Source: Planctomycetota bacterium
Lineage (GTDB): Bacteria; Planctomycetota; SZUA-567; H5-PLA8
DNA: 64,000 nucleotides
Direction: 5' to 3'
Assembly (NCBI GenBank): GCA_038227875.1
Contig: JBBRPR010000014.1
Span: 47,454-111,453, forward strand
Position numbers and translations under genes: made by a program. A model generated the notes under the pieces. It made no database searches and was not told the origin of the DNA. It saw nothing but the letters and a program-made list of their open reading frames with translations. Every line of letters begins with the position of its first letter. Position 1 is the first letter of the stretch. Positions 1,378 to 62,612 of the stretch are shown one piece after another.

Positions 1378-1502
1378 CGGCGATCTCCAATCCAATAAAA
1401 GGGGTGTTTTTAACCAGTGACATTAACAAGGAGGCCATATATACCGGTTGCGTTGGTCAATTTGTGAACTATTTTTCCGCCGTGAGCTTACGTCCCCAAT
1501 CC

Positions 1503-15735: not shown

Positions 15736-15758
15736 TCCGGGCGGTTCGCCCGGTATCT
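15732..15758. repeat. third copy of the REP-like palindromic unit; likely bidirectional terminator hairpin
   Basis: GTAGTCCGGGCGGTTCGCCCGGTATCT. It matches the 9352 copy at 21/27 positions; both stem arms are identical and the loop differs. It overlaps the TAG stop (15733-15735) and sits between convergent genes. Confidence 0.7.
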
Positions 15759-15790
15759 CAAACCACGCAGTGAGACGGATTCGCCCCGAC

Positions 15791-22813: not shown

Positions 22814-23143
22814 GCGGATTGCGTGCGGACGTTGTAACCGAATGGCGACGTGGTGTTGCGCTCGGCTCGGCGCTACGCTCTGCGCTCCGCTCGGCGTGCT
22901 GTGCTAGGTACTCTTCACTTCAAAATTGATAATTCAAAATTGCTCACCGTTGCAGCCGGAGTCTTCGCGGCGGGTGCTCGTGCGGGTGCGCCAATTCTGC
23001 AATGCATTTTCCCCTGCGTGGGAACGCGGGGTGACTTAGGCCGCATTGTTCACCTATGACCTTTATTCCCCACGGATGGCATGGAGGGTGCCCGAAGGTC
23101 GAGCGCATTGCGATTTTGTGCGCTCTAAGTGGAGGAGCATGCC

Positions 23144-29100: not shown

Positions 29101-29431
29101 ACAGACGGTGACCGTCGACGTGGGTGGCAACGTTCAGACCTTCACGCTGAATGCGCGGGGTCAAGGCCGCAGCGGAGCCAGTTCCTTCAGTCTCCGCGCG
29201 CGAATGAAGGGCAATTCAAAAGTGACAGCCGACTACGAAGCGCCGATCAAGATCGTGTTGAGCGGAGAATTGGGGACGGCGCTGCGTGCGAATTCCAGCC
29301 TCGATGCGCAGGGGTTCCCGACACGCGTGACAGTGCTGGTGCAGTTTAACGGTGGATATTTTGGAGACTCCGCACCGCTGAAATTCAAAGTCGGACCCAA
29401 CGGTGTCGCGACGGCGAAGGGAAAATTCTGA
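23144..29431 (+). CDS. giant exported adhesin-like protein (cadherin-like VNDAP modules, 7-8 He_PIG domains, Ig-like, PKD)
   Basis: GGAGGAG lies 6 nt before ATG 23144. Signal peptide MLHLPSRVHPVTLTALFSFCFFAAIPAWGA. VNDAP/VNDPP boundaries. Tandem ~92-aa units ending ...NGTATLSGTPxxGTGGVY...QNFTLTVNEAP. YQWY Ig-like domain. PKD signature VTWNFGDGSTATGSSAIHIYTAPGTYTVTTTLTD. Confidence 0.85.
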   Translation: MLHLPSRVHPVTLTALFSFCFFAAIPAWGASAPPFRVPQLPTNGQQPGPIATLGNGYIAIPYQDLSNPALFNQVGVSVFDTNGVRVGAEIIDPTALNYSPAAVAGSASNTFWVVSDVFDLNNPPGMGNFTRIIATLYTVSGNTVTRGVVKTIVDDSFDGSDDESVSVARLANGNYVVAWGHTSADFGSGSTQTRTFDSNFAPLSPRTTISSGATSTPFTFEVSVTSNGTNVDVTYKPNSNTGIYGVAFTVNSGGAISGISAPVNVSAALGGNQSWGHQELPDGTIVVLYNTPQVGATGGDMYGAIFGAGFSGTPSTFLIATGTPVPPNGVYQPVSAQATLFPNGGFIVTYARPTGGHQAEIYARFYDSNHAPLTNEFLVTVPQGTPANGVENLRPYVTSGVAGGGGLAIAWMTMDFTASSNPNTDVYARVYADIGPTSSGGTSSLAAALEDSNPTGASVSSLITGNQYKSMLNHPFAGVAVVGNAATAPQGQWQYSSNAGASWSSVATTVSATNATIIGAGDLIRFQPSSNWNGTPGALTVRVWDGQDGFVADSTAQNISQYIFDTSGITQTTASFTGAFAGTTVFFATSITAVNDAPMTTGSAVTLTAINEDTLNPAGQAVSSAVAALFSDATDAVAGGSSANTLAGIAISGNAEAGEGTWQWFNGSSFVNVGTSVSNSSALILAAGTTVRFVPALNFNGAAPQLTARLIDNSSGAVTAGSTVNFVATGTGGTTPYSAATFGIGEVINPVNDPPVLVNTATPVAATEQTAALLSSTITVSDVELDALNGGAGDYAGATLTVARLVGQMPEDVFGFDPAGAGFTISSGNLQSGGLSFGSFTSGSGVLNITFTSSGTAATQALVRSVLQHITYTNTSDDPPATVSFTYVFHDGNTGSQGSGGTLVGQAVAVVNIAGVNDAPWVTVPLGIQTALKEADAPIVGIVCYDLDAGAGSITATLFVSHGTLNVVASGGASITGNSTGTLTISGTLTQVNTALTAFNNFLYHGNAGYTGVDQVSINVNDNGNTGAGGPLQAQGSITLYVVEPVTVTSGNLATFTVGLPGTFTVTTSASFPTAALSEVGALPAGVTFVDNGDGTATLSGTPGPGTGGVYPLVIAALNGVPPVALQNFTLSVNQAPTFTSANAFSFVAGQLGQFYVTTGPDYPTATTLTCAEPLPIGLHFHDLHNGTAFLVGIANAGTGGVYTLHFTASNGVAPDATQTFTLTVYEAPTISSVDSATFTAGVAGTFTVTTAHCYPVASFMLMPSLPAGLNFVDAGDGTATISGTPASGFSGIHPQLILANNGVSPLGAQTLILTINEGPSITSNTTTTFTVGSLGQFTITTGLHFPLNTVLSCSGALPAGVHFIDDSDGTGRLIGIPSAGTGGAYSLTLTASNGIVPDGTQTFTLVVREAPRISSADTAMFTASQAGTFTITTDRGYPAPALSITGALPSGVSCVDAGNGTATLSGTPAAGTGGVYSVTITAQNGISSNATQNFTLTVNEAPSFTSANAATFVAGAAHTFTVTTGHAYPAAVTVSSSGTLPTGVTFTDNGNGTATLAGTPADGTGGLFSLPFTASNGIAPDATQNFILTVNEAPTITSANGATFAVGSAGSFTITTGHCYPVPALSQLGFLIPNLSVVDRGDGTATLSGTPAAETAGVFTFTLVASNGVAPDAHQVFFLIVNVPTITVSPTTLKKGTVGTPYSQTVSAAGAGSVAPYSFAVSSGALPGGLNLSSAGVISGTPTTKGVFTFTVQATDSSGGSGPYQGASAVTILIDERTPPVVTQQPSGISIFTGMTATLTVAASGQSLSYQWYQGGSGDTSQPVAGATGNAFTTPAQTVTTSYWVRVSNSGGFTDSNAALVTVVPPPLINGGSPSGEVGTGGPIINAQMPFSVDVPGGTTVTWNFGDGSTATGSSAIHIYTAPGTYTVTTTLTDPSGQQTAQTSTIVIKPTPMRITSGNFILNSGNDRAILTGLVHVAGGSVLNQQTVTVDVGGNVQTFTLNARGQGRSGASSFSLRARMKGNSKVTADYEAPIKIVLSGELGTALRANSSLDAQGFPTRVTVLVQFNGGYFGDSAPLKFKVGPNGVATAKGKF
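26279..28210 (+). repeat. seven tandem ~276-285-bp coding repeats (He_PIG-type domains) inside the giant CDS
   Basis: Successive units start at VTVTSGNLATFTV, ANAFSFVAG, VDSATFTAG, NTTTTFTVG, ADTAMFTAS, ANAATFVAG, ANGATFAVG. They are divergent at the DNA level but collinear at the protein level. Confidence 0.8.
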
Positions 29432-29481: not shown

Positions 29482-29521
29482 GTCAGGAAGAAATTCTCGC
29501 AGCTGAGAATTTCTTCCTGAC
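29482..29521 (+). terminator. perfect 17-bp hairpin after the giant CDS
   Basis: GTCAGGAAGAAATTCTC-GCAGCT-GAGAATTTCTTCCTGAC, 50 nt after the stop at 29431. There is no clear T-run. A lower-GC promoter-like region follows, up to the hydrogenase operon. Confidence 0.6.
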
Positions 29522-29686
29522 GTTGAGAACGTTAAAATTTATGCAGTGGGGATGGCTCAAATTACAAAGATCAAATCGAACTGGACTTGCATGTAATTTC
29601 AGGCACAAACACGGCTGGCACTTTATGTGCACATCCCGATCACAGCAGATGCACGTCAAAACGTTCAACTCCTGGCAGGATGAACC

Positions 29687-30832
29687 GTGTCGAACCTGTG
29701 TAAAGTCGGCGAGAACTGGGTGCTGTCGCGAGCGAAGCTCCAGGGCTTAATCGATGCGCTGACGGGCAGCGGGTACCAGGTGATCGCACCCACGGTTCGC
29801 GATCAGGCTATCGTCTACGACCGGATTTTCAACGAGCGCGAATTGCCGGTGGGCTTCACCGACGAACAGGACGGCGGGAAGTACCGCCTCAAGCGGCGCA
29901 GCGACGAGTCCGTGTTTGGATTCGCTGTCGGGCCGACCTCGTGGAAGCGGTTTTTGCATCCGCCCATTTTTAAACTCTGGGGCGCTGCGAAAACGGACGT
30001 CGGCATCGCCTTCAAACCCAACACGGATCCCGTGCCGAAGTACGCTTTTCTGGGCGTGCGGGCGTGCGAACTTCAGGCCATCGGTGTTCAAGATCGCGTG
30101 TTCATGACGCCGCCGTTTATCGATTCGGTTTACGCTCAGCGCCGCGAACTGGCGTTGATCGTAGCGTTGAATTGTTCGATGTCGGGCGGGACGTGTTTTT
30201 GTGCGTCGATGAACACCGGACCGAAAGTCAGCTCCGGCTACGACCTGGCGCTGACGGAACTGCTCGGCGGCGGCGCGCACAACTTTCTGCTGCATGTCGG
30301 TTCGGAAAAAGGCGCGCAGATCGCGTCGCAGCTCGAACTGGAGCCGGCCACCGCCACGCACACCAACGCCGCGGACGCGGTCGTCGCGCACACGGCCAGC
30401 ACGATGGGCCGTCAGCTGGATATCAGTGGCGTAAAGGAATTGCTGGCGTCGAATCTGGAGCACCCTCGCTGGGATGCCGTCGCGGCGCGCTGCGAATCGT
30501 GCGCAAATTGTACGATGGTTTGCCCGACCTGCTTCTGTACGACGGTTGAGGACGTGACCGATCTGGCCGGACAGAATACCGAGCACCAGCGGCGCTGGGA
30601 TTCGTGCTTCACGTCTGATTTTTCGCACGTTCACGGCGGCAGCGTGCGGCAGAGCACCAAGTCGCGCTACCGCCAGTGGCTGACGCACAAGCTCTCGACG
30701 TGGCACGATCAGTTTGGAACTTCCGGCTGTGTGGGTTGCGGGCGCTGCATCACGTGGTGTCCGGTGGGCATTGATCTGACCGAGGAAGTGCGTGCCATTC
30801 GCGAAGAACCGAAAGCGGAGGCGAAAGCGTAA
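29687..30832 (+). CDS. hydB: [NiFe]-hydrogenase group-3b-type beta subunit (4Fe-4S dicluster protein)
   Basis: [16 protein letters not shown] and [12 protein letters not shown] ferredoxin-type motifs. It is ~380 aa and the first gene of a beta-(cNBD)-gamma-delta-alpha array, like sulfhydrogenase hydBGDA. GTG start. Confidence 0.75.
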
Positions 30833-30834
30833 TC

Positions 30835-31338
30835 ATGGAGACACTCGAGCCGATTCTTTCCGAACATCCATTTTTCAAAGACCTGCCGCAGTCGTATCTG
30901 CATCTGATTACGGGCTGCGCGTCGAATACCACGTTTGAGGAAGGGGAATTCATTTTTCGGGAAGGACACGAAGCGAATAATTTCTATCTGCTCCGCCAGG
31001 GCCGCGTGGCGCTGGAAATTTCCGTTCCCTCGCACGCACCGATTGTGCTCAAGACGCTGGACGCCGGGGAGATCCTGGGCTGGTCGTGGCTGGTCTCTCC
31101 CTACCATTGGATGATGGACGCACGCGCGGTGGAATTGACGCGCGCCATCGCACTGGACGGACCGTGCCTGCGCAAGAAATGCGAAGCCGACGGTGCTCTG
31201 GGCTACGATCTGCTGAAACGCTTTGCGCACGTCATGGAGCAGGAACTTCAGGCGGCGCGGTTGCAGTTGATTGATGTCTACGGCCGGCCCACGGCTCCGG
31301 CTGCGCCTGGCGCCATCGGAAAGGAGCGGAAAGCATGA
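30835..31338 (+). CDS. stand-alone cyclic-nucleotide-binding (CAP effector-type) domain protein, no HTH
   Basis: [51 protein letters not shown]...[12 protein letters not shown] is a cNMP-binding beta-barrel pattern. At only 167 aa it has no DNA-binding domain. Start is 3 nt after the hydB stop; its stop overlaps the hydG start (ATGA). Confidence 0.8.
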
Positions 31339-32174
31339 GCTGCGTTTCCGATCCGATGCTGCCGAAGTCTTTCCGCGTCAGCCGCGTGAAGACCGAGACC
31401 GCCGATACGTTCACGCTGGATCTGCATCCGCAGGATGATGCCGCCATGGGCATGGCTTTTGAGCCCGGGCAATTCAACATGCTCTACGTTTTCGGCCAGG
31501 GTGAAGTGCCGATTTCGATCAGCGGCGATCCGGCTCAACCGAACACGCTGGTACACACCATTCGCGCAGTCGGCGGCGTGACGGAAGCGCTGCAGCGTTG
31601 CCGCAAAGGTGACATGATCGGCGTACGTGGGCCGTTTGGTACGCCGTGGCCGGTCAGCGCCGCACACGGGAAGGACGTAATCATCGCCGCGGGCGGGCTG
31701 GGGCTCGCGCCGCTGCGCCCGGTGGTCTACCAGGTGTTGAACACGCGCGAAAAGTTCGGCAAGGTGACGCTGCTTTACGGAACGCGGTCGCCCGACGACA
31801 TTTTGTTCGAAAAGGAATTGGAGAAGTGGCGCGGGCGCTTCGATTTCGACGTTCACGTTGCCGTGGCGACCGCGACGCCGAAGTGGCGCGGCATCGTCGG
31901 CTTCATCACGGCGTTGATTCCGAAAGCGAATTTCGACCCGGCCAACGCCGCGGTCTTCGCCTGCGGTCCGGAATTGATGATGCGCGTGACGGCCAACGAA
32001 TTCATCAAGCGCGGCGTGCCGCTGAATCAGACCTTTGTTTCGATGGAACGGAACATGAAATGCGCTGTGGGATTCTGTGGCCATTGCCAGCTTGGTCCCA
32101 CCTTCATCTGCAAGGACGGGCCGGTCTTTCCGTACAACCGCATCCGCGATTTGATGCTCGTGAGGGAGCTCTGA
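31335..32174 (+). CDS. hydG: hydrogenase gamma subunit (FAD/NAD(P)-binding, 2Fe-2S; PyrK-like)
   Basis: Ferredoxin-reductase-like fold: FTLDLHP..., [18 protein letters not shown]-terminal cluster motif [23 protein letters not shown]. Confidence 0.85.
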
Positions 32175-32179
32175 TCCCC

Positions 32180-32962
32180 ATGTCACGCGCTCATCGAAAA
32201 CCCAAACTGGCGGTCTGGAAATTCGCTTCCTGCGACGGCTGCCAGCTTTCGCTGCTCGACTGCGAAGACGAACTGCTCGCGATTGCCGGCGAGATCGAGA
32301 TCGCCAACTTTGTCGAAGCGTCGCGGGCCGTGGTGAAAGGTCCGTACGACCTCTCGCTGGTGGAAGGCTCGATCACCACAGGGCACGACGAGGCGCGGAT
32401 TCAGCACGTGCGGAAAATGTCGAAGCATCTGGTCACTATCGGCGCGTGTGCGACGGCCGGCGGGATTCAGGCGCTGCGCAATTTCAAGGATGTGAAGGAA
32501 TTCACGTCGATTGTTTACGCCAAGCCGGAGTACATCGAAACGCTGGCGACGTCGACCCCGATCTCCGCTCACGTCCGCGTGGATTTCGAGCTGCGCGGCT
32601 GCCCGATCAACAAAACTCAATTGCTGGAAGTGCTGACCGCGTTTCTGCACGGCCGGCGGCCCAACATTCCCGACCAGAGCGTGTGCATGGAATGTAAATT
32701 GAAGGGCAACGTCTGCGTCATGGTCGCGCACGGTACGCCGTGCCTGGGACCGGTGACGCACTCGGGCTGCGGAGCGCTGTGCCCGTCGTACGACCGGGGT
32801 TGTTACGGCTGCTTCGGGCCGAAGGAGAACGCCAACACGGCCGCGCTGGGCACATGGCTGCACGACAAGGGCATGCCGCACGCCGACATCATGCGCAGCT
32901 TTCAGACCTACAACGCCGCCGCCACGCCGTTCCGAAAGGAAAGCGAAGCGCATGAAGAGTAG
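32180..32962 (+). CDS. hydD: [NiFe]-hydrogenase small (delta) subunit, NuoB/20-kDa-like
   Basis: [30 protein letters not shown]-terminal Cys-rich [11 protein letters not shown]...[19 protein letters not shown]. No twin-arginine signal. The real start is ATG 32180, not the 31646 start given by the track. Confidence 0.85.
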
Positions 32963-34241
32963 AACGATCAAGGTCGATTATCTCGCGCGCGTGGAAGGCG
33001 AAGGCAGCCTGCGCGTCAAGATTAAAGACAATGTGCTGAAGGATGTGCAGCTCAAAATTTTCGAGCCGCCGCGCTTTTTCGAAGCGTTTCTGCGCGGGCG
33101 CACGTACATGGAAGCGCCGGACATCACCGCGCGCATCTGCGGCATCTGCCCGGTCGCATATCAAATGAGCGCCGTGCATGCGATCGAAAGTGCGTTCGAC
33201 GTGAAGGTGCCGGAGCCGATCCGTCTACTGCGCCGTTTGCTGTACTGCGGCGAATGGGTTGAAAGTCATGCCTTGCACATTTACATGCTGCATGCGCCGG
33301 ACTTTTTGAATTTTGAAGACGCCGTGCAGATGGCCAAGAAATTTCCGGAGATCGTCAAGCGCGGCCTGCAGTTGAAGAAGGCCGGCAACGCGATTGTGGC
33401 GCTGCTTGGCGGGCGCGAGATTCACCCAATCAATGTCCGCGTGGGCGGATTCTACCGCACGCCGTCGCGCAACGAATTGCTCACGCTGCTGGATTCGCTG
33501 AAGTGGGCGCGCGACGCGTCCGTCGAAACCGTGCGCTTTGCGGCGACGCTGCCGTTTCCGGATTTCGAATGCGACTACGAATTTGTCTCGCTGAGGCACG
33601 AGAAGGATTATCCGTTCAGTGAAGGGAGCATTGTTTCCAACCGTGGCCTGAACATTGCGACAGATCAGTTCGATGCGCATTTTGCCGAGGAGCATGTCCA
33701 GCATTCCAACGCGCTCCACTGCTTGCTCAAAGAACGTGGTGCGTACTTTGTCGGGCCGATGGCACGGTACAATTTGAACTTCGATCGCCTCTCGAAGCTG
33801 GCGCGCGATGCCGCGATCGAGGCGAAGCTGGGGCCGGTTTGCAACAATCCATTCAAGAGCATTATCATTCGGAGCGTGGAGCTGGTGCAGGTGTTTGATG
33901 AGGCGATTCGCATCGTGGAAGGCTACGAGCCGCCGTCCGCTCCGTTTGTGGCGATGACGCCGCGGAAATCCGTCGGCTACGCGGCCACCGAAGCGCCGCG
34001 CGGCATGCTCGTGCATCGCTATGCGCTCGACGATGCGGGGATCATCACCGACGCGCGGATTGTGCCGCCGACGTCGCAGAATCAGAAGACCATCGAGAAT
34101 GACCTGTGGCAGTTCGTGCCGCGAAATCTCCACCTCAATAACGCCGATCTGACGTGGCGCTGCGAGCAGGCCATTCGAAATTACGATCCGTGTATTTCGT
34201 GTGCGACACATTTTCTCAAAATGGACGTGGAACGGAGCTGA
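32952..34241 (+). CDS. hydA: [NiFe]-hydrogenase large (alpha) subunit
   Basis: N-terminal LARVEGEG and [17 protein letters not shown] (CxxC Ni ligands). C-terminal [18 protein letters not shown] (CxxC-x2-H plus a short tail for endopeptidase cleavage). Confidence 0.9.
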
Positions 34242-34245
34242 CAAA

Positions 34246-37002
34246 ATGACTCATCAAGATACTCATCAAGATACTCATCAAGATACTCATCAAGATACTC
34301 ATCAAGATACTCATCAACTACGCCGGGCGCTGGATCCTATTTTCACCCCGCGCAGCGTCGCGCTGATCGGCGCGACGGAAAAGCCCGGCAGTGTCGGGCG
34401 TACGATATTGCAGAACCTGACGGGGGCGAATTTCTCCGGGCCGATCTATCCCGTGAATCCCAAGCGCGAGACCGTGTTGGGTTTCAAAGCGTATCCCTCG
34501 CTCACCAGCATCGGCAAGCCGGTCGATCTCGTCGTGATCGTGACGCCTGCAACCAACGTGCCGGCATTGATCGCCGAAAGCGTGGCGTGTGGCGTGCCCG
34601 GCGCGATCATTATCTCCGCGGGATTCAAGGAGACGGGGCCCGAGGGCGTGGAGCTCGAGCGCCAGGTTCGCGAGGCCGCGGCGGGGAAGATCCGCATCAT
34701 CGGCCCCAATTGCCTGGGCGTGATGAACCCGCTCACGGGTTTAAACGCGACGTTCGCCAGCACCATCGCGCGGCCGGGCAATGTCGGATTCATCAGCCAG
34801 AGTGGCGCGCTCTGCACCGCGATTCTGGACTGGAGCCTGCGTGAAAATGTCGGCTTCAGCGCGTTCGTCTCGACCGGCTCGATGCTCGACATCGGCTGGG
34901 GCGATCTGATCTACCATCTCGGCGACGATCCCAAAACCGAGAGCATCGTGATCTACATGGAGTCCGTCGGCGACGCGCGCAGTTTCATGTCCGCCGCGCG
35001 CGAAATCGCGCTGTCCAAGCCGATCATCGTGATCAAGGCCGGCCGGACGCAGGCCGCCGCCAAGGCCGCCGCGTCGCACACGGGCGCGCTGGCCGGCAGC
35101 AACGATGTGCTCGACGCCGCGTTCCGCCGGTGCGGCGTGCTGCGCGTAAACAACATTTCAGAACTGTTCGCGCTGGCGGCGACGCTGGCCAAGCAGCCGC
35201 GCCCGCGCGGTCCGCGACTGACGGTGCTCACCAACGCCGGCGGTCCCGGAGTACTCGCGACCGATGCGCTGATCAGCGCCGGTGGAACTCTTTCCGAATT
35301 GTCGACGCAGACCTCCGCTCAGCTCAATGCGATTCTGCCGTCGCATTGGAGCCACTCCAATCCGGTCGACGTGCTGGGCGATGCCGATCCCGAGCGCTAC
35401 GTGAAGGCCTTTGAAATCGCCGCGTGCGATGAGAACAGCGACGGCACATTGGTGATTTTGACGCCGCAGGCGATGACGAATCCCACCGGGTTTGCCGAAC
35501 GGATGGCCGGTGCGAAGCGGCCGGCGGGCAAGCCGGTGCTCGCCAGTTGGATGGGCGGCGATGACGTGGCCCCTGGCATCGAACTGCTCAACCGGGCCGG
35601 CATCCCCACCTTCTCCTATCCCGATGAAGCGGCGGAAGCGTTCGCGTACATGTGGCAGTACAGCGCCAATCTTCAGCGCTTGTATGAGACGCCTGAACTC
35701 AGCGCCGATGACCCGGCGGCGGCCAGTCCGCTGCCGCAGGTCGAATCATTGTTGACCTCCGCGCGGCGCGACGGCCGTACGTTGCTGACGGAAGTCGAAT
35801 CGAAACACCTGCTGCAGGCATACGGTCTGCCTGTGGTGGCGACGCATCTGGCGAGAACGGTTGACGAGGCGGTGACGTTCGCGGACTCACTGCGCTACCC
35901 TGTGGTGCTGAAACTGTATTCGCACACGATCACGCACAAGACGGATGTCGGCGGCGTGCAGTTAAATCTCGCCAGTTCCGAGGACGTGCGCCGCGCATTT
36001 GCGCTGATCGAACACAACGTGGCGACGCATGCGGGCCGCGAGCATTTCCAGGGCGTGACGGTGCAGCGTATGGAGAAGCTGGAAGGCTACGAGATCATCC
36101 TGGGCAGCAGCATCGATCCGCAATTCGGACCGGTGTTGTTGTTTGGCCTCGGCGGACAGCTGGTGGAAGTGTTCAAGGACCGCGCGCTCGCGCTTCCGCC
36201 GCTGACGACAACGCTGGCGCGGCAGATGATGGAACGGACGAAAATTTTCACCGCGCTGCAGGGTGTGCGCGGGCGCAAGGCCGTGGACCTGGCGAAGCTG
36301 GAACGCATTCTCGTGCGCTTCAGCCAGCTGGTGGCCGAACAGCCGCGCATCAAGGAACTGGATATCAACCCGCTGCTCGTGTCACCCGACAACATCGTCG
36401 CGCTGGACGCGCGCGTGGTGTTGCACGATTGGGCCGTGAACGATGCCGCGCTGCCGCGCACGGCGATCCGGCCGTATCCGCGCAAGTACGTCTCGGAATT
36501 TAAAACGAGCAATGGTATCGCGGTGACGGTGCGGCCGATCCGGCCCGAAGACGAACCGCTGATCGTACAGTTTCATGAAACCTTGTCTGAGCAGACTGTG
36601 CGGCTGCGCTACCTGCACAACTTGAAATTCGACGAACGCGTTGCGCACCAGCGGCTGATGCGCATCTGTTTCATCGATTACGACCGCGAGCTGTCGCTGG
36701 TCGCCGAGGTCAAGGATGCCGCGGGTCAGGCGCGGATTGTCGGCGTGGGCCGATTGAACAAACTGCACGGCGGAAATGCCGCGCACATTTATCTGGTGAT
36801 CTCCGATGCGTTCCAAGGGAAGGGTATCGGGCGCGAATTGACAACGCGAATGCTGCAGGCTGCCCGGGACGAGAAGGTTCAAACCGTGTTCGCGGAACTT
36901 CTGCCCGATGCCGCGGGGATGCAGAAGTTGTGCCGGACGTTTGGATTCAGCATTGCCCCGGCTCAATCCGGCGGAAACTTGTATGCGGAATTGGCGTTAT
37001 GA
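34246..37002 (+). CDS. Pat-type fusion: ADP-forming acyl/acetyl-CoA synthetase (CoA-binding + ATP-grasp) with C-terminal GNAT acetyltransferase
   Basis: CoA-binding [16 protein letters not shown]. Ligase-CoA loop [14 protein letters not shown]-grasp [18 protein letters not shown]...VVLK. C-terminal GNAT with [17 protein letters not shown] 34246 is 4 nt after the hydA stop. The stop overlaps the next start (ATGA). Confidence 0.85.
34249..34320 (+). repeat. 12-bp tandem repeat (ACTCATCAAGAT x5 perfect + 1 imperfect) encoding (THQD)5-THQL
   Basis: Read directly: units at 34249, 34261, 34273, 34285, 34297, and an imperfect one at 34309. They lie at codons 2-25 of the Pat-type CDS. Confidence 0.95.
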
Positions 37003-37472
37003 ACGGCGCGCCGGACACGCTGGTGGTTGGCATCGGCAACGGATTTCGCGGCGATGATGCAGCCGGTCTGCTGGCGGCGCGGTTGCTCGCCCCCGGAGCG
37101 CCGGACGGCACGCGGGTGATCGAACACAACGGCGATGGCATGCTGCTGATGTCCGAATGGCAGCGTTTCCGGCGCGTGATCGTCATCGATGCGCTGCATG
37201 TCGCAGGCAATCCCGGCGAGATCCTGCGCTTTGATGCGAGTGAAAAACCACTGGCGATCAAGGGCGGGCATTCGTCGACGCACGCGCTGAGTATTGGCGA
37301 TACGATCGAGCTGGCGCGAACGCTGGGGGAACTTCCAGCGCAGATGATCGTGTACGGGATCGTCGGAGCGACTTTTGAAATCGGCGCGGCTCCTACGGTT
37401 GCGGTCTCAGAGGCGGTGAAGGTGCTGGCCGCTCGCGTGCGCGAGGAATTATTAGACGGAGGAAAAATTTGA
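36999..37472 (+). CDS. hydrogenase maturation endopeptidase (HycI/HoxW family)
   Basis: [18 protein letters not shown]...VIVIDAL...HSSTHALS pattern. ATG 36999 overlaps the upstream stop. Confidence 0.8.
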
Positions 37473-37736
37473 ATGCATGAATTTTCACTGATCAACGATT
37501 TGATGCGCAAGATCGCGGCGATCGCCACGGAGCAGAAGGCCGAGAAGGTCACGAGCGTCACCGTGCGGTTGGGGGCGCTGGCGCATATTTCCGCCGACCA
37601 TTTCCGCGAGCATTTTGTTCACGCCGCGCGGAATACCGTCGCCGATGGCGCGCAATTGAAAGTGCTGACGTCCACCGACGAGGCCGATCCGCGCGCGCAG
37701 GATATTCTTCTGGAGAGCGTGGACGTTGCGGACTGA
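37473..37736 (+). CDS. hypA: HypA-like nickel chaperone, short form without zinc-binding cysteines
   Basis: MHEFSL N-terminus (the MHE Ni-binding motif). VTSVTVRLGALAHISADHF is collinear with HypA. It is only 87 aa with zero Cys. The start directly abuts the protease stop (TGAATG). Confidence 0.65.
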   Translation: MHEFSLINDLMRKIAAIATEQKAEKVTSVTVRLGALAHISADHFREHFVHAARNTVADGAQLKVLTSTDEADPRAQDILLESVDVAD

Positions 37737-40005
37737 CGCGCCGGCCACATCGACGCACGCTGAACGCCGCCGCATCAGCCTGACCGGCTGCGTGCAGGGC
37801 GTGGGTTTCCGTCCGTTTGTGTATCGTCTCGCGAAGCAACTGATGCTGAGCGGCTGGGTGAACAACACGCCGCAGGGCGTCGAGATCGAAATTGAAGGCG
37901 CGGCTGGGACGATCGATCTGTTTGAGAAACAACTTCAGGGCGAGGCGCCGGTGCACGCGCGGATTCACACGCTGAACAGTCAGCGCGTCGCGCCGCTTGG
38001 CGTTGTGGGGTTTGAAATTCGGGAAAGTGCGGCATCGGGAGTAATCGGCACCATTCCGCCTGACCTCGCCGTCTGTGCGGAGTGCGCGCGTGAGATTTTT
38101 GAGCCGCAGAATCGGCGCTATCGATATCCCTTCACCAATTGCACCCACTGCGGGCCGCGCTTTTCGATATTGGAACGCGCGCCGTATGATCGCGCCAACA
38201 CGTCGATGAAGTGTTTCGAGATGTGTGCGGCGTGTGCGGTGGAGTACGGCGATCCGGCCGACCGACGATTTCATGCGCAGCCCAACGCGTGTCCGGCGTG
38301 CGGACCGCAGTTGCAGCTTTGGGACGCTGCCGGCCGCACTCTCGCGCAACGCGACGATGCGCTGAATGCAGCGGCGGCCGCGATCCAGGCGGGAAAAATC
38401 GTCGCGGTGAAGGGCATCGGTGGCTTTCAGTTGATGGTCGATGCCCGCTCGGATTCCGCGATCGCCCGCTTGCGGGAGCGGAAGCACCGCGACGCGAAGC
38501 CTTTCGCGCTGATGTTTCCGTTGCTTGATGCGATACGCGTGGAATGTGAGGTCGATACCCTTGAGGCTGAACTGCTGACCTCGGCGGCAGCGCCGATCGT
38601 GATTTTGCAGCGCAGTGCCGCTTCGCGGTTGCCGGAAATTTTAGCGCCGCGCCATCCGACGCTGGGCGCGATGCTTCCGTATTCGCCGCTTCATATCTTA
38701 CTGCTCGATGCGCTGAAGGCGCCGGTCGTAGCCACGAGCGGCAATGTTTCCGACGAGCCGATTTGCATTGATGAACACGAGGCGCTGCGAAGGCTGGCGG
38801 GTCTCGCGGACTTATTTCTCGTTCACGACCGGCCGATTGTCCGTGCGGTGGACGACTCGGTGGTGCGCGTGTTTGCGGGCCGAGAGATGATGCTCCGTCG
38901 CGCGCGCGGTTACGCGCCGCTGCCGATTCGCGTAGGCTTCACGCTGCCTGGCATCACTGCGTTTGGCGCGCATGTGAAGAACAGCGTGGCAATTTCGCGC
39001 GGCGATGAAGTGATCGTGAGTCAGCATGTCGGTGATCTGGAGACGGCTGAAGCGCGCGCCGCACTGGAAACTACGCTGCGCGACCTGCCGCGGCTGTTTG
39101 AACACGAAGCGGAGCTTAGCGCCGCGGATGTGCATCCGGATTACGCGTCGACGCGGTTGGCGCTGCGCACCGGCGCGCCGGTGCTCGTGCAGCATCATTA
39201 CGCGCACGTTCTTTCGTGCATGGCGGAGAACGAACTACAGGCGCCGGTGCTCGGCGTGGCCTGGGACGGCGCGGGATTGGGCCTCGACGGCGCAAGTTGG
39301 GGCGGGGAATTTCTCGCTATTAATGCCAGCGGTTTCGAGCGCGTCGCGCACTTGCGTCCGTTTCTGCTTCCCGGTGGTGATGCGGCCGCACGCGAGCCAC
39401 GCCGCACTGCGCTGGGCGTGCTGTATGAGATTTTTGGCACTGAGGTGTTTGAGCGGACGGAGCTCGCACCCGTTCAAGCATTCAGCGCCCACGAACGAAT
39501 GCAGTTGCTGACGGTGTTGTCCAGAAAAGTAAACACGCACGAAACCACGAGCATTGGGCGGCTCTGCGACGCGGTGGCTGCGCTGCTGAAACTTTGCCCA
39601 GTCTCCTCGTTCGAAGGTCAGGCGGCGATGCTGCTCGAATTTGCCATCGGCGAGGTTGCGACCGACGCGAGTTACGCGATGCCGCTGCGCGGTACGATCG
39701 TCGATTGGGAACCGGCGGTGCGGGAGATTCTCGCGGATCTGAGCGATCACGTCTCTGTCGCGTTGATCGCGGCAAAATTTCACAACGCGCTGGTGGAAGC
39801 AATTATTTCGGTTGCGCGAGCCAGCGGGCAAAGCGCGGTTGCGTTGAGCGGCGGTTGCTTTCAAAACAAGTACCTGACAGAACGCGCTGTGGCGCGCTTG
39901 CGTGCATCCGGGTTCACGCCGTACTGGCATCGGCGGGTGCCACCCAACGATGGCGGCATCGCCTTGGGTCAGATTCTCGCGGCCGCGCGGTCGCTGGAGA
40001 CTTAA
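37726..40005 (+). CDS. hypF: carbamoyltransferase HypF
   Basis: Acylphosphatase-like ISLTGCVQGVGFRPFVYRLA. Two zinc-finger pairs: CAECAREIFEPQNRRYRYPFTNCTHCGPRFS and CAACAVEYGDPADRRFHAQPNACPACGP. YrdC-like and Kae1-like C-terminal regions. TTG start overlapping the hypA end. Confidence 0.9.
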   Translation: MRTDAPATSTHAERRRISLTGCVQGVGFRPFVYRLAKQLMLSGWVNNTPQGVEIEIEGAAGTIDLFEKQLQGEAPVHARIHTLNSQRVAPLGVVGFEIRESAASGVIGTIPPDLAVCAECAREIFEPQNRRYRYPFTNCTHCGPRFSILERAPYDRANTSMKCFEMCAACAVEYGDPADRRFHAQPNACPACGPQLQLWDAAGRTLAQRDDALNAAAAAIQAGKIVAVKGIGGFQLMVDARSDSAIARLRERKHRDAKPFALMFPLLDAIRVECEVDTLEAELLTSAAAPIVILQRSAASRLPEILAPRHPTLGAMLPYSPLHILLLDALKAPVVATSGNVSDEPICIDEHEALRRLAGLADLFLVHDRPIVRAVDDSVVRVFAGREMMLRRARGYAPLPIRVGFTLPGITAFGAHVKNSVAISRGDEVIVSQHVGDLETAEARAALETTLRDLPRLFEHEAELSAADVHPDYASTRLALRTGAPVLVQHHYAHVLSCMAENELQAPVLGVAWDGAGLGLDGASWGGEFLAINASGFERVAHLRPFLLPGGDAAAREPRRTALGVLYEIFGTEVFERTELAPVQAFSAHERMQLLTVLSRKVNTHETTSIGRLCDAVAALLKLCPVSSFEGQAAMLLEFAIGEVATDASYAMPLRGTIVDWEPAVREILADLSDHVSVALIAAKFHNALVEAIISVARASGQSAVALSGGCFQNKYLTERAVARLRASGFTPYWHRRVPPNDGGIALGQILAAARSLET

Positions 40006-40007
40006 AA

Positions 40008-40262
40008 ATGTGCCTCGCCATTCCCGGGCAGATCCACAGCGTCTCCGGCGACGATCCGCTGACGCGATTGGGTAAAGTGTCGTTTGGCGGCATCGTCAAA
40101 GAGATCAATCTCGCTTTCGTGCCGGAAGCGAACGTGGGCGATTTCGTGCTGGTCCACGTCGGCTTTGCGATCTCGCGCATCGACGAAGCCGAAGCGCGCC
40201 GCACCTTTGAGTATTTGAAGCAGGCCGGGGAAGCCGAGGAGCTTCAGGCGGATGATTCATGA
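40008..40262 (+). CDS. hypC: hydrogenase assembly chaperone HypC/HupF
   Basis: [10 protein letters not shown]-terminus (essential Cys2), 84 aa. Confidence 0.9.
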
Positions 40263-41365
40263 AGTACCTCGACGAATTCCGCGACCAGGCTGCGATCGAA
40301 GCGTGCGCGAAAGCGATTCGCGCCGTGGTGCGGCAGCCGTGGACGATCATGGAAGTCTGCGGCGGCCAGACGCACAGCATCGTCAAGCACGGGCTCGACC
40401 GACTGCTGCCGGAATCCGTGACGCTGGTGCACGGTCCGGGTTGTCCGGTCTGCGTGACGCCGGTGGGCATCATCGACAAGGCGCTGGATTTGGCGGCGCG
40501 CAAAGATGTGATTTTCTGTTCGTTCGGCGACATGCTCCGCGTGCCCGGTACGCGCGGCGATTTGTTCTCGGTCAAAGCGGGCGGTGGTGACGTGCGGATG
40601 GTCTATTCGCCGATGGACGCGTTGGCGCTGGCGAAACGGCAGCCGGAAAAGGAGATCGTTTTCTTCGCCGTGGGTTTCGAAACGACCGCGCCGGCCAACG
40701 CGATGGCCGCGTATCAGGCGCGCCAGCAGAACGTTCGCAACTTTTCGCTGCTGGTGTCGCACGTGCTGGTGCCGCCAGCGATGGAAGCGATCTTGAGCGC
40801 CCCGAAAAATCGCGTGCAGGGATTTCTCGCGCCGGGGCATGTCTGCGCCATTGTCGGGTATGCGGAGTACGAAGAACTGGCGCGGCGCTTCCGCGTTCCC
40901 ATCGTCGTCACGGGATTCGAGCCGGTCGATATTCTGCAGGGAATATTGCTGTGTCTGACGCAACTCGAAGAGAGTCGCAGCGTCGTTGAGAATCAGTACA
41001 CGCGTTTTGTGCGTCGCGATGGCAATGAGACGGCGTTGCGGTTGCTGCGCGAGGTCTTCACGGTCGTGCCGCGAAAGTGGCGCGGCGTGGGTGAGATTTC
41101 CGCGAGCGGACTGGCACTGTCCGATGCATTTGCGGACTTCGACGCCGAGAAGCGCTTCGGACTTTCGCCGAACTCCGCCGACGAATCGACGGAGTGCATC
41201 AGCGGGGAAATTCTGCAGGGGTTGAAGAAGCCGCCCGACTGCCCTGCATTCGGTTCGCGTTGCACGCCCGATCAGCCGCTTGGCGCGACGATGGTCTCTT
41301 CGGAAGGCGCCTGCGCGGCGTATTTTCGCTACAGGCGGTTTCAGCAGCAGAGGGCCGATGCGTGA
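40259..41365 (+). CDS. hypD: hydrogenase formation protein HypD
   Basis: [33 protein letters not shown] motifs. ATGA overlap with hypC. Confidence 0.9.
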
Positions 41366-42414
41366 CCACACCCGACGTACCGTTCGGCTCATGCCCGCTG
41401 CCGCACTCCAACGCCTCGTCGATCATGCTCGGGCATGGCGGCGGCGGCACCCTGACGCAGTCGCTAATCGAAACCGTGTTTCTTCCAGCGTTCGCGAACT
41501 CTGCGCTTTCAGCGCGGCATGACAGCGCAGTGCTGGAAGTTAACGGCCAGCGCCTTGCGTTCACCACCGATTCGTATGTGGTCCGGCCGCTGTTTTTTCC
41601 CGGCGGCGACATTGGCAAACTCGCCGTCACGGGCACGATCAACGATCTGGCGATGGCCGGCGCGCGGCCGCTGTACTTGAGTGCCGGGTTCATCATCGAA
41701 GAAGGCTTCGCCAAATCCGATCTCGCGAAAATCGTGGCGTCGATGCAGGCTGCCGCGACTGAAGCCGGCGTGCAGATCGTGACCGGCGACACAAAGGTCG
41801 TCGACAAGGGCAAAGGCGACGGAGTGTTCATCAACACGGCGGGAATTGGCGTGATCGAAACGCCGCTGACGATTGCGCCCGGCAGCGCCAGGGCGGGGGA
41901 TGCGATCATTCTCAGCGGGGACATCGGCCGTCACGGCATCGCGATCATGGCGGTGCGCGAGGGGCTCGAATTCGAGAGCACCATCGAAAGCGATTGCGCT
42001 TCGTTGCACGCTCCGGTGGCGGCGTTGTTGCGCGCAGGCGTGGACGTGCATTGTCTTCGCGACCTGACGCGCGGCGGCCTGGCGTCGGCGCTCAACGAGA
42101 TCGCACAAGCTGCGGCGGTGGGCGTGGAGATCACGGAGCGGGAAATCCCTGTCGATACACAAGTTCGCGGTGCCTGCGAGATTCTCGGGCTCGATCCGCT
42201 TTATGTCGCCAACGAAGGACGCTTCGTCGCCTTCGTGGCGGCTGGAGATGCGGAGCGTGCAGTGAAAATTCTGCGCGGCGAACCGGTCAGCTTTGACGCA
42301 CGAATGATTGGACAGACTGTTACCGGCACGGCGCAAGTTGTCCTGCGCACGGCGATCGGGGGGAATCGTGTCGTCGACATGCTCAGCGGCGAGCAACTTC
42401 CGAGAATCTGTTAG
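41362..42414 (+). CDS. hypE: hydrogenase expression/formation protein HypE
   Basis: LGHGGGG near the N-terminus, AIR-synthase-like fold, C-terminal GEQLPRIC (PRIC cysteine). GTG 41362 overlaps the hypD stop (GTGA). The 41194 start in the track is rejected. Confidence 0.88.
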
Positions 42415-42420: not shown

Positions 42421-43524
42421 TCAATCGCCCAGGCAGATTCCGAGCTCGCGGGCGGTCAGCACGGTGTCGGAATTGACGTCGACGCACTTTCGTCCTCCGA
42501 TGGTGGACTCCAGAGATGTCGATGTCATCCCGGGCGGCTGGAATGAAACCATCTGCCCCCAGCGTCCGGCTTCCGCCAGCCGCACGGCAGCCGTGCCGTA
42601 GCGGAGGCCCAGGAGCCGGTCGTAGGTCGTCGGAGATCCACCCCGCTGGATGTGGCCCAGGACCAGAGCGCGCGTGTCGGCGCCGGTGCGTTGTTCGATC
42701 TGCGTGGCGACGTACTGACCTGCTCCGCCCAGCAGTGGTTCGTGGCCCTTGACGGTTTTCTTCTGCAGAATTTCCGCCCCTTCGCGTTCCCGGGCGCCTT
42801 CCGCAACGACCACGATGGCCGAGGCTCGTCCGGATTTGCGCCGTTCGTTGAGAAACGCGGCGACGTTTTTCATCGTGTAAGGAATTTCGGGAATCAAAAT
42901 CACATCGGCGGAAGCGGAGATGCCCGCGTGGAGCGCGATCCAGCCGGCGTGGCGGCCCATGACCTCAATGACCATGGTGCGGCCGTGCGCCTGGGCGGTG
43001 GTCTGCAGCTTGTCGATGCAATCCGTCGCGGTGGCGACGGCGGTATCGAAGCCAAACGTCCGCTCGGTGCCGAGCAGATCGTTGTCGATGGTTTTGGGAA
43101 CGCCGATCACCTGCACACCCATGCGGTACAAACGGTAGGCGATGCTCATGGATCCGTCGCCACCGATGGCGATCACGCCATCGATCTTCTGACGCTTGAG
43201 TTCGCTCACGACAATTTCCGCGGCAAGGGCCCGCCGCGTGGAGCCAGGAAAGTGTGTGCGGAACTCAAAGGGATTGGCGCAATTGGTGGTGCCCAGGATT
43301 GTACCGCCGAGACCCGCGATGCTGCGTACAGTCTCGCGAACCAGCGGAATGCACGGTTCGCCGGCAATGATTCCGCAATAGCCGTCGCGAATGCCAACCA
43401 CTTCCAAACCGCGATTGAGCGCGGATTGCGTTGCGGCGCGGATCACTGCGTTCAGTCCGGGTGCATCGCCGCCGCCCGTGGTGAGGGCCAGACGCTTCAA
43501 GGGGTGTCGTGACGTTTGGGACAT
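42421..43524 (-). CDS. pfkA: ATP-dependent 6-phosphofructokinase
   Basis: GGDAPGLNAVIRA, IGGDGSM, PKTIDNDL, MGRHAGW motifs. GGDGS (Gly rather than Asp) favours the ATP-dependent type. Confidence 0.9.
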   Translation of the reverse strand: MSQTSRHPLKRLALTTGGGDAPGLNAVIRAATQSALNRGLEVVGIRDGYCGIIAGEPCIPLVRETVRSIAGLGGTILGTTNCANPFEFRTHFPGSTRRALAAEIVVSELKRQKIDGVIAIGGDGSMSIAYRLYRMGVQVIGVPKTIDNDLLGTERTFGFDTAVATATDCIDKLQTTAQAHGRTMVIEVMGRHAGWIALHAGISASADVILIPEIPYTMKNVAAFLNERRKSGRASAIVVVAEGAREREGAEILQKKTVKGHEPLLGGAGQYVATQIEQRTGADTRALVLGHIQRGGSPTTYDRLLGLRYGTAAVRLAEAGRWGQMVSFQPPGMTSTSLESTIGGRKCVDVNSDTVLTARELGICLGD

Positions 43525-54307: not shown

Positions 54308-55225
54308 ATGGTCGCGACTGCGGAAAAGCTGGTTCTGCCGGTGGGCACGCGTCAGATGGAGCTCGGAAAGGACATCTTTCTGCTGCGCGAAAGCAACGAC
54401 GTGCTCCATGACGTCGAAGCCTTGCGCGCCCGAATGAAGGAAGACGGCTACCTCTTCATTCGCGGCCTGCACGACAAGGATCAGGTGCTGGCCACCCGCC
54501 GCCGCATGCTCGAGAAACTCGCCGAAAACGGTGCGCTCGATCCGAAAGCGCCGCTGATGGATGCGGTGATCAATACGGCCAATCCGCGCGGCAAATTCTT
54601 CGGCGGCACCAATCAGCTCACCACGCTGCCTGAGTTTCAAGAGCTGGTGAAGTCGCAGCGTTTGATGAATTTCTTCGAACGCTTCCTCGGCGGTCCGGCC
54701 CTGACGTTTGATTACAAGTGGCTTCGTGTTGTCTCCAACGGCGATTTTACCGGTGCGCATTACGACGTCGTCTACATGGGCCGTGGCACGCATAACCTCT
54801 ACACCACGTGGACGCCGATCGGCGACTGTACGTGGGATCTGGCACCGCTGGCGGTTTGCTCCGGTTCGCACAAGGACGAGTTCCGCAAACTTCACGACAC
54901 CTATTGCAAGATGGACGTCGACCGCGACCACGTCCAGGGCTCGTTCTCCGACGATCCGTACGAGATCAGCGAGAAGTTCGGCGGGCAGTGGCAGACGGCG
55001 GAATTCAAAGCCGGCGACGCGCTGGTCTTTGGTATGCACACGCTCCACATGTCGCTGAAGCACACCGGTAAGTCGTACCGCATCAGTTCCGATACGCGCT
55101 ACCAGCTGGCCGCGGATCCCGTGGACGAACGGTGGGTCGGCGAAAATCCGAAGGCGCACTACGCCTGGCATAATCCCGAGAAGAACAAGTCGATGGCCGA
55201 AGCGCGCAAGGAATGGGGCGTGTAG
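54308..55225 (+). CDS. PhyH-family Fe(II)/2OG dioxygenase, paralog 1
   Basis: GAHYDVVYMGRG (HxD) and HMSLKH (distal His candidate). 305 aa. Divergent from the AraC gene. Confidence 0.75.
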   Translation: MVATAEKLVLPVGTRQMELGKDIFLLRESNDVLHDVEALRARMKEDGYLFIRGLHDKDQVLATRRRMLEKLAENGALDPKAPLMDAVINTANPRGKFFGGTNQLTTLPEFQELVKSQRLMNFFERFLGGPALTFDYKWLRVVSNGDFTGAHYDVVYMGRGTHNLYTTWTPIGDCTWDLAPLAVCSGSHKDEFRKLHDTYCKMDVDRDHVQGSFSDDPYEISEKFGGQWQTAEFKAGDALVFGMHTLHMSLKHTGKSYRISSDTRYQLAADPVDERWVGENPKAHYAWHNPEKNKSMAEARKEWGV

Positions 55226-55278
55226 GGAATGTCGAAGTCTGAATGTCGAATGTCGAATTGAAAACACGGAGCGACGCA

Positions 55279-62563: not shown

Positions 62564-62612
62564 GCCGTACCGTCCCGTTCCCGCTCCAGTTCCGCGTCGA
62601 ACTTGGAGAAAA

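Follow-up and report, generated by a model that had tools for sequence, protein, structure and literature searches.

Why should the operon of a [NiFe]-hydrogenase carry, between the gene for its large subunit and that for the protease which matures it, a gene for a fused acyl-CoA synthetase and acetyltransferase? The question is raised by a stretch of 64,000 nucleotides from a Planctomycetota bacterium (assembly GCA_038227875.1, contig JBBRPR010000014.1, positions 47,454 to 111,453 of the forward strand), which as a whole we call the window. Twelve same-strand (+) genes at 29687-42414 follow one another there in the order hydB, cNBD, hydG, hydD, hydA, ACD-GNAT, protease, hypA-like, hypF, hypC, hypD and hypE, where cNBD denotes a stand-alone cyclic-nucleotide-binding-domain protein and ACD-GNAT the fusion of an ADP-forming acyl/acetyl-CoA synthetase (ACD) with a GNAT acetyltransferase domain. 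Operons of this bacterial group 3b type were already known, and their cNBD gene has been noted in the literature, though it is uncharacterized. New are the embedded, translationally coupled ACD-GNAT gene and the recurrent pairing of such fusions with group 3b and 3d hydrogenases and with pyruvate:ferredoxin oxidoreductase (PFOR) in several phyla. With moderate confidence we read the cluster as a co-expressed low-oxygen fermentative module that converts NAD(P)H to H2 and acetyl-CoA to acetate and ATP, with acetylation as an added output. The observed facts on which this reading rests are gene content, gene order, coupling, conservation of catalytic residues and recurrent linkage.

The argument starts from the fusion protein, whose gene and diagnostic residues lie as follows:

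34246..37002, + strand: ACD-GNAT fusion, 918 aa, with CoA_binding, Succ_CoA_lig, Ligase_CoA_2, ATP-grasp_5 and GNAT domains
34249..34317, + strand: perfect 12-nt tandem repeat (ACTCATCAAGAT), 5.8 copies, encoding (THQD)n at the fusion N-terminus
35077-35079, + strand: His278 in the SHTG loop, the ACD phosphohistidine loop
35935-35937, + strand: His564 in HKTDVGGV, second relay histidine, in the ATP-grasp (beta) part
36784-36786, + strand: His847, aligned to E809 of PatZ
36814-36831, + strand: GNAT motif A, QGKGIG (Q857-G-K-G860-I-G862), in invariant columns

The best solved relative of the fusion is the lysine acetyltransferase PatZ of Escherichia coli (residues 26-903 aligned, E 5.6e-147), so that the Pat domain order with a retained SHTG loop, as claimed in the preliminary description of this DNA, is borne out over the full length. 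PatZ (PDB 9it0/9isq) and Salmonella enterica Pat share domain order, length and a conserved GNAT motif A with the window protein, whose GNAT domain begins at about 36502. In PatZ, however, a 4-residue deletion removes the SHTG phosphohistidine loop, which the window fusion keeps, and its catalytic E809 is replaced by His847; of the active-site residues in question, both ACD histidines and motif A are thus retained, but not this glutamate. After PatZ, the next solved matches are ADP-forming 4-hydroxybutyrate- and acetyl-CoA synthetases (8wzu, E 1.2e-138). With ACD enzymes (Ca. Korarchaeum ACD1, 4xyl; Nitrosopumilus, 8wzu; Pyrococcus ACD) the fusion shares the complete set of subdomains in fused alpha-beta order and both histidines of the phosphoryl relay, whereas it differs by the additional C-terminal GNAT domain and by scores under the equivalog cut-offs. 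In type I and II Pat proteins the ACD domain is inactive and that histidine is missing (review PMC8556138), and the PatZ structure paper describes ATP binding as structurally possible but functionally irrelevant (PMC12184503). Because Pat ACD domains are defined by the missing histidine, the window fusion is not an ordinary Pat. Judged from its sequence, it has the architecture of Pat, departs from it in one defining feature and carries the catalytic residues of ACD enzymes. We hence take it for an apparently catalytically competent bifunctional protein, an ADP-forming acyl/acetyl-CoA synthetase joined to a Pat-type GNAT.

Relatives of 60-66% full-length identity occur in Acidobacteriota, Anaerolineae, Nostoc/Anabaena and Planctomycetota, and the family bears the NCBI name 'bifunctional acetate--CoA ligase family protein/GNAT family N-acetyltransferase'. 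Within it, the window copy is set apart by the (THQD)n N-terminus and by the His at the general-base position of the GNAT domain. The (THQD)n segment is absent from the homologues, the N-terminus of which is unrelated and of similar length; the repeat preserves the reading frame, and slippage could change its length. We found no tie between the His847 substitution and hydrogenase linkage, as linked members carry E, R or H.

Conservation within the family bears on a first alternative, namely that the fusion is chiefly a Pat-type lysine acetyltransferase. Its ACD-like part would then sense acetyl-CoA or nucleotides, and its GNAT would acetylate the hydrogenase, the proteins that mature it or enzymes from its regulon, tuning H2 metabolism to the acetyl-CoA status. 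The full-length homology to PatZ and the intact, invariant motif A are in agreement with this. Yet His278 and His564 are strictly conserved in 81 of 81 family members, and present too in the fusions of Anabaena and of two close relatives of the locus (L174, L168 below), which would be unexpected in a pure sensor, as PatZ has lost the loop. Furthermore, the ACD part is better conserved than the GNAT part (~65% versus ~50% identity), and the site of PatZ E809 is occupied by E, R, Q, H or A, depending on the member.

How firmly is this gene built into the operon? All twelve open reading frames lie on the + strand at the positions first described, with junctions from an 11-nt overlap (-11) to a 5-nt gap (+5), and every assignment is backed by Pfam and NCBIfam. 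The ACD-GNAT gene has a GGAG 10 nt ahead of its ATG, and its stop overlaps the start of the protease gene (ATGA), which points to integration into the translational unit. Inside the cluster, promoter-like consensus sites (4 versus 3.4 in shuffled sequence) and terminator-like ones (21 versus 17 +/- 5) are no more common than in shuffled sequence; one transcript with translational coupling is therefore plausible and the natural reading of the cluster, while the stricter view that internal promoters find no room has to yield, since these may lie within coding sequence.

Three sets of loci served to compare the surroundings of the fusion: 80 genome loci chosen around HydA relatives from many phyla (61-70% identity), on which the 12 window proteins were mapped; six loci with usable context among the closest HydA relatives; and 80 metagenome loci around relatives of the fusion, where the flank reaches 6 kb or more in 50. 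Among the closest relatives, L174 (HydA 71% identical) has the identical 12-gene order. In L165 (75%), where the fusion starts 1 base past the end of hydA, the ACD part shares 75% identity with that of the window copy; L168 (72%) reads hydA-Usp-fusion-protease-hypA-hypF-hypC-PFOR. The position between large subunit and protease, presented at first as unfamiliar, is thus shared. In L173 (71%) the fusion follows hypE and is itself followed by ferredoxin and PFOR genes. This L173 protein (15308-17824) is a variant of 838 aa that has SQVA for SHTG and an intact GNAT, and a 75-residue deletion in its ATP-grasp part removes the second histidine; here the ACD half has decayed naturally, 'Pat-like', inside a hydrogenase cluster.

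Beyond these close relatives, a full fusion lies between hydD and hydA in a member of the Bryobacteraceae (L074), and a Usp-fusion-PFOR run ~4 kb downstream of the 3b operon in one of the Acidobacteriaceae (L005). Among the metagenome loci, L155 has the fusion upstream of hydB (fusion-cNBD-hydB-cNBD-hydG-hydD-hydA-protease), L093 within a group 3d hoxF/Y/H-hypA-hypB...hypF cluster, and L160 in a fusion-hypC-hypD-hypE run that leads to an uptake-type large subunit. L115 pairs fusion and PFOR, with hypFCDE 7 kb off. PFOR is the most frequent conserved neighbor, its gene being the next one after the fusion in 3-5 of the 80 metagenome loci, and four fusion loci contain a formate-dehydrogenase-like gene, called by eye from the sequence, with HydB/HydG-like partners. 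In Anabaena (Trichormus) variabilis ATCC 29413 (L171, CP034058.1; 8001-10757, 12500-15268) a 63% identical orthologue lies 1.7 kb from hoxH and convergent to the hox cluster; together with a second GNAT and a RidA gene it forms a run that converges on hoxH, CBS-CP12 and hoxY of the bidirectional hydrogenase.

Such adjacency might mean little if the fusion gene were a passenger, inserted at a permissive intergenic site in one lineage and co-transcribed with no functional tie to the hydrogenase. A sister operon in the Planctomycetota metagenome-assembled genome (MAG) GCA_035308565.1 (L166/L167, HydA 73%) indeed has the same order without the fusion, a copy of which lies elsewhere in that genome (L164). 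The L175 operon, in which a 512-aa open reading frame upstream of hydG has no Pfam match, likewise does without it, and the neighborhoods of the fusion family are mostly unconserved. But the fusion is linked to hydrogenases of three groups (3b, 3d and uptake type), in no fewer than six arrangements and on distant branches of the tree. Hydrogenase-linked fusions are scattered over the neighbor-joining tree of the family, which speaks against a single clade of linked fusions and suggests that the linkage arose several times independently. By a rough estimate, chance would place the two genes within 10 kb of each other, in genomes of 5-8 Mb, in ~0.3-0.4 cases per 80 loci, whereas 4-5 adjacencies were observed, about tenfold more. 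With the tight junctions and the ATGA overlap pointing the same way, we consider a passenger distinctly improbable.

The surveys also carry further evidence on the Pat-type alternative. In L048 a Pat-type GNAT-only gene separates hydA from the gene for the protease, an insertion point that is used also in the window, L165, L168 and L174. In L161, on a 592-kb plasmid of Rhodococcus qingshengii (NZ_CP077418.1, 1-9729), CBS, ppsA, pfkB and a small Pat-like GNAT gene are divergent from a 3b operon hydB-cNBD-hydG-hydD-hydA-protease, a gene company like that of the mycobacterial hypoxia regulon. The L173 variant, too, keeps its GNAT and its linkage to hydrogenase, ferredoxin and PFOR without either ACD histidine. 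On the other hand, ACD-only genes accompany 3b operons as well: in L033 and L040 such genes (42% identity) follow the operon, both with SHTG and the former also with the second-histidine motif, which was not found in the latter. More than 90% of 3b operons, moreover, do without any GNAT. A chiefly regulatory, Pat-type role of the fusion therefore appears to us unlikely, though by no means negligible.

What kind of hydrogenase does the fusion accompany? The four structural genes are:

29687..30832, + strand: hydB, Fe-S beta subunit of the diaphorase module, 381 aa, GTG start (Pfam Fer4_22, 1e-32)
31335..32174, + strand: hydG, FAD/NAD(P)-binding gamma subunit with 2Fe-2S site, 279 aa (Pfam NAD_binding_1, DHODB_Fe-S_bind)
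32180..32962, + strand: hydD, small (delta) subunit, 260 aa (Pfam Oxidored_q6; NCBIfam ShyD, HydD, 1e-49)
32952..34241, + strand: hydA, [NiFe] large (alpha) subunit, 429 aa (Pfam NiFeSe_Hases)

HydA has the L1 motif RICGIC (33132-33149, residues 61-66) and the L2 motif DPCISCATH (34185-34211, residues 412-420), both invariant in the alignment of homologues, and ends in a 9-residue C-terminal extension for the endopeptidase. Among NCBIfam models it scores highest with the sulfhydrogenase alpha subunits ShyA (274 bits) and HydA (225) versus FrhA (154) and VhuA (153). Among PDB entries the solved 3b large subunits rank best, with Thermococcus kodakarensis 5yxy (199 bits) and Pyrococcus furiosus 9nez (198), and 9e15 of the latter species also among them, versus MvhA (187) and the NAD-reducing group 3d enzyme (143). 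HydB, HydG and HydD score highest with sulfhydrogenase beta, gamma and delta models, HydB matching sulfhyd_HydB, ShyB and AsrA (AsrA-like 4Fe-4S protein) and HydG 'hydrogenase subunit gamma', HydG and AsrB. Because these best scores all fall to sulfhydrogenase subunits, assignment to group 3b of NAD(P) type, as first proposed from the hydBGDA-like set, is supported, with a modest margin over group 3c. The best explanation of the operon is that it encodes a cytosolic NAD(P)-linked 3b [NiFe]-hydrogenase of a widespread bacterial clade. HydA homologues at ~70% identity come from KSB1, Planctomycetota, Verrucomicrobiota, Acidobacteriota, Nitrospinota, Bacteroidota, Brocadia and others, and the nearest named relative is a Planctomycetota MAG (63-73% identity).

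The sulfhydrogenases I and II of P. furiosus (HydBGDA, ShyBCDA) and the Hyh enzymes of T. kodakarensis and Mycobacterium smegmatis have the same alpha/delta/beta/gamma set, and share with the window the L1/L2 CxxC motifs, the C-terminal extension and a dedicated endopeptidase. The window differs from known 3b enzymes in a mini-HypA lacking the Zn finger, in having no HypB and in the inserted ACD-GNAT gene. The bacterial 3b clade has a fifth conserved gene, cNBD, between hydB and hydG, whereas archaeal 3b operons presumably lack it.

For M. smegmatis, Hyh was reported as a group 3b enzyme induced by DosR, whose fermentative H2 evolution in hypoxia sustains substrate-level phosphorylation, with phosphoenolpyruvate (PEP) synthase and PfkB in the same regulon (bioRxiv 10.1101/2023.09.11.557286). 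Genes of like kind stand in the flanks of the clusters compared here, namely phosphofructokinase (window), PEP-utilizing enzymes (L166), ppsA/pfkB/CBS (L161), Usp (L005, L168, L173) and CBS (L165) genes. For the proposed module we infer in which direction catalysis runs, when the genes are expressed and what is acetylated, as follows. A shortage of oxygen or of other electron acceptors would induce the whole operon together. The hydrogenase would re-oxidize NAD(P)H and release H2, while the ACD half of the fusion would convert acetyl-CoA, ADP and Pi to acetate, ATP and CoA, gaining one ATP per acetyl-CoA. Acetyl-CoA might stem from pyruvate oxidation, in relatives often by the PFOR encoded beside the fusion. 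The GNAT half could draw on the same acetyl-CoA pool to acetylate a candidate target. We favor, as pure conjecture, the AMP-forming acetyl-CoA synthetase, the canonical Pat substrate; it is the simplest target because its inactivation would prevent a futile acetate cycle.

Several observations weigh against such a module. The hydrogenase is NAD(P)-linked and PFOR reduces ferredoxin, so that the electron path connecting them is not encoded here. The fusion scores under the cut-off for the acetate--CoA ligase alpha subunit (TIGR02717, 538.6 versus 567.15 bits), so that acetyl specificity is only putative, and likewise for NF045493 (553 bits, cut-off 1300). Our literature search returned neither expression nor enzyme data on members of the fusion family, no characterized ACD-GNAT with an active ACD and no description of a hydrogenase link. 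The fusion lies within 10 kb of hydA in only 2 of the 80 genome loci (plus two ACD-only and one GNAT-only), and hydrogenase or hyp neighbors were seen at only 4 of the 80 fusion loci. GNAT-only genes occur at 3b operons (L048, L161), and an acetyltransferase or sensor function alone can thus be the selected partner. Finally, in L173 the linkage was kept though the ACD part lost both histidines and 75 ATP-grasp residues. Placement of the fusion in a 3b operon is hence uncommon but recurrent; the neighborhood survey called for in the preliminary description shows the fusion to be rare, the cNBD gene to be standard and the exact gene order to recur in L174.

Two functions had been envisaged in the preliminary description, a ligand-gated acyl-lysine control of H2 metabolism and a hard-wired module yielding acetate, ATP and H2. 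The latter is better supported, by the invariant ACD histidines and by the repeated position of fusions beside PFOR and soluble hydrogenases. Of the former, the acyl-lysine half retains some ground through the GNAT-only genes and the L173 variant, although we prefer the module; the ligand-gated half does not stand, as discussed below for the cNBD protein. The module and a regulatory, Pat-like function are not mutually exclusive. Combining them, histidine-retaining ACD-GNATs may be active enzymes in an undescribed partnership with soluble 3b/3d hydrogenases and PFOR in Acidobacteriota, Planctomycetota-like lineages, cyanobacteria and others. Besides making ATP, the fusion would acetylate an enzyme that competes by activating acetate, or the hydrogenase or the proteins of its maturation, so that acetyl-CoA supply directly gates fermentative H2 release. 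Pat/PatZ of enterobacteria would then descend from an enzyme of this kind by degeneration to a pure regulator, a decay that would be seen under way in L173. Taken whole, this combined proposal seems to us rather doubtful.

The second gene that is neither a structural nor a maturation gene is:

30835..31338, + strand: stand-alone cNMP-binding-domain protein, 167 aa (Pfam PF00027, 9.7e-13, 48 bits, over cut-off)

Both peptides quoted in the preliminary description, the cassette of this protein and SHTGALAG of the fusion, are present in the translations, and its account of a cNBD protein with a non-canonical cassette and no DNA-binding domain agrees with our Pfam scan and with a profile alignment to PKG. 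In this alignment, Trp83 (31081-31083) and Trp92 (31108-31110) occupy the positions of the canonical cassette Glu and Arg, and both are invariant in 30 homologues, within the family signature G-W-S-W-L-x-P-P-Y-x-W-x-F-D-A. The Gly-Glu and Arg-[ST]-Ala elements of a functional cyclic-nucleotide cassette are thus not found, and since invariant Trp replaces the Glu and Arg, canonical binding of cAMP or cGMP is unlikely. The AlphaFold2 model (pLDDT 81) predicts a CRP/PKA-type beta-roll with a long C-helix, which matches CRP, GlxR and PKG at TM 0.6-0.7 and 3mdp at TMt 0.89. As had been presumed in the preliminary description, the gene recurs in bacterial 3b clusters: it stands between hydB and hydG in 71 of the 73 loci that have both, the exceptions being L024 (Anaerolineae) and L076 (Chloroflexi). 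Its median identity of 55% across loci equals that of HydB and HydG, and the protein collection holds more than 4300 homologues, typically of 153 aa. Apparent fusions of cNBD to HydG or HydD (L037, L043) were considered as a sign of a physical complex and discarded, as stop codons interrupt the long reading frames.

Might the cNBD protein nevertheless gate the GNAT in trans as its ligand sensor, as in the mycobacterial cAMP-Pat, and so place acetylation of the hydrogenase under cyclic-nucleotide control? The two genes share one operon, the GNAT is weakly similar to mycobacterial Pat (NCBIfam NF058543, 3.6e-10; PDB 4ava), and in L155 a second cNBD paralogue directly follows the fusion gene. However, nearly all 3b operons with the cNBD gene lack any GNAT, no cNBD homologue lies beside the fusion in the 80 fusion loci except in L155, and the residues that would hold cyclic phosphate and ribose are invariant Trp. 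Because the cNBD gene is near-universal in 3b operons with or without a GNAT, it is not specifically paired with an acetyltransferase, and we find such gating hardly credible. The two L155 paralogues (4125-4679 and 5924-6448) are both ~57% identical to the window protein, one directly after the ACD-GNAT gene and the other between hydB and hydG; that locus also has a NicO-like nickel transporter gene after the protease gene.

The cNBD gene of 3b operons is mentioned in three papers (e.g., PMC13332983, PMC12319191) and characterized in none. It was noticed in Rhodococcus equi (PMC13332983), and in the alphaproteobacterial methanotroph "M. acidophilus" 29 it was called HoxI (PMC12319191). HoxI of the soluble NAD-reducing group 3d hydrogenase of Cupriavidus necator (Ralstonia eutropha) is likewise a 167-aa stand-alone protein of cNMP fold; both are encoded within the operon of a soluble pyridine-nucleotide-linked [NiFe]-hydrogenase, and both lack the canonical cassette Arg. 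Burgdorf et al. 2005, as cited in PMC12319191, connect HoxI with NADP binding besides NAD+. The W-S-W...P-Y-x-W signature, however, is specific to the 3b cNBD family and unlike HoxI, and hoxI follows the protease gene in C. necator, whereas cNBD stands between hydB and hydG in the window. The pairwise comparison with HoxI from pHG1 gives 25% identity over 114 residues (E 2e-7), and HoxI was not retrieved with the window cNBD at E<=1e-3 in a tblastn search of a plasmid collection that includes pHG1. At such identity HoxI is an analogue or at best a distant homologue. Most likely, the cNBD protein is an accessory subunit or regulator that, like HoxI, binds a nucleotide or redox cofactor, rather than a cAMP/cGMP sensor.

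Downstream of the fusion follow the maturation genes:

36999..37472, + strand: large-subunit C-terminal maturation endopeptidase, 157 aa (Pfam HycI; TIGR00072, 1.6e-30), start in the ATGA overlap with the ACD-GNAT stop
37473..37736, + strand: mini-HypA, 87 aa, with MHE nickel-binding N-terminus (Pfam HypA, profile positions 1-66 of 112 only)
37726..40005, + strand: hypF carbamoyltransferase, 759 aa, TTG start (TIGR00143, 796 bits, over cut-off)
40008..40262, + strand: hypC chaperone, 84 aa (Pfam/NCBIfam)
40259..41365, + strand: hypD, 368 aa (Pfam HypD, 1e-151)
41362..42414, + strand: hypE, 350 aa, GTG start (Pfam AIRS, AIRS_C)

The endopeptidase and hypF/C/D/E are as first annotated, but hypA codes for the N-terminal half only: its product has no cysteines, and the Zn-finger half (CxxC...CxxC domain) is missing. 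Its 17 orthologues measure 82-92 aa with 0-1 Cys, and mini-HypA is found in L001, L003, L004, L021, L032, L041, L166, L168 and L173-L175 too. No hypB was found in the cluster or elsewhere in the window. A mini-HypA without zinc domain and the lack of hypB in the window suggest that this 3b clade may use a HypB-independent or differently partnered route of nickel insertion. A second nickel-handling gene, for a LarC-type 'Ni_insertion' protein (61262-62809, - strand; PF01969, 1.9e-138), lies 19 kb from the operon.

The borders of the operon and a candidate promoter are marked by:

29482..29521, strand not applicable: perfect 17-bp inverted repeat with 6-nt loop, 50 nt past the stop of the upstream 2100-aa gene
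29616..29631, + strand: sigma-54-like -24/-12 element TGGCAC-N5-GTGCA, 56 nt before the hydB start, a weak lead
42421..43524, - strand: convergent phosphofructokinase gene (Pfam PFK, 1e-97), marking the 3' end of the operon

The hairpin, in a 255-nt intergenic spacer upstream of the hydrogenase operon, is terminator-like and, as read from the sequence, sets the 2100-aa gene apart from it. The sigma-54-like motif matches twice in the window versus 2.27 expected, so that its position alone is suggestive. The L165 cluster, headed by a CBS gene (at 5774), has a similar element ~62 nt ahead of that gene. Upstream of the L173 operon, a PAS histidine kinase is paired with a sigma-54 activator (273-3117), and response-regulator-Usp and cytochrome c genes stand between this pair and hydB; no sigma-54 activator gene was found in the window. 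As a conserved feature the promoter was rejected, since 71 of 72 relatives lack it ahead of hydB and its frequency in the window is at chance.

Scans of the window found no Rfam families and no tRNAs. Directly upstream of the operon, 23129-29431 encodes the 2100-aa protein, secreted-looking and with many Thr/Gly/Ala-rich Ig-like repeats; in L163 a 2138-aa protein is encoded ahead of the fusion gene, but synteny was dismissed, as the two proteins have no similarity. PhyH-family (phytanoyl-CoA dioxygenase-like) genes occur at 2566-3453, 54308-55225 and 55243-56196, two of them in tandem, near glycoside hydrolase, DUF4838 and heparinase-like genes. Two HEAT-repeat proteins are encoded as well, one fused to an ECF sigma factor (15791-18325, - strand).

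Among the hydrogenases of soil and sediment bacteria, those of group 3b rank with the most widespread, and they are thought to help aerobes survive oxygen shortage via fermentative H2 release. To our knowledge, no bacterial enzyme of this group has yet been purified along with the cNBD protein, its fifth component. The recurrent linkage described here and a histidine-retaining 'Pat' are noteworthy and overturn no known principle, the functions we assign being inferred. A large protein family filed next to Pat nonetheless retains all residues for ACD catalysis, which questions the textbook notion that its large domain is merely regulatory. The recurrent pairing suggests an undescribed link between hydrogen release and the use of acetyl-CoA when oxygen is scarce, and the genetically tractable Anabaena variabilis, with its fusion beside the hox genes, makes the idea directly testable. 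An operon that hard-wires a hydrogenase to an enzyme consuming acetyl-CoA, for ATP and for protein acetylation, would offer a concrete and testable connection between carbon flux and H2 release.

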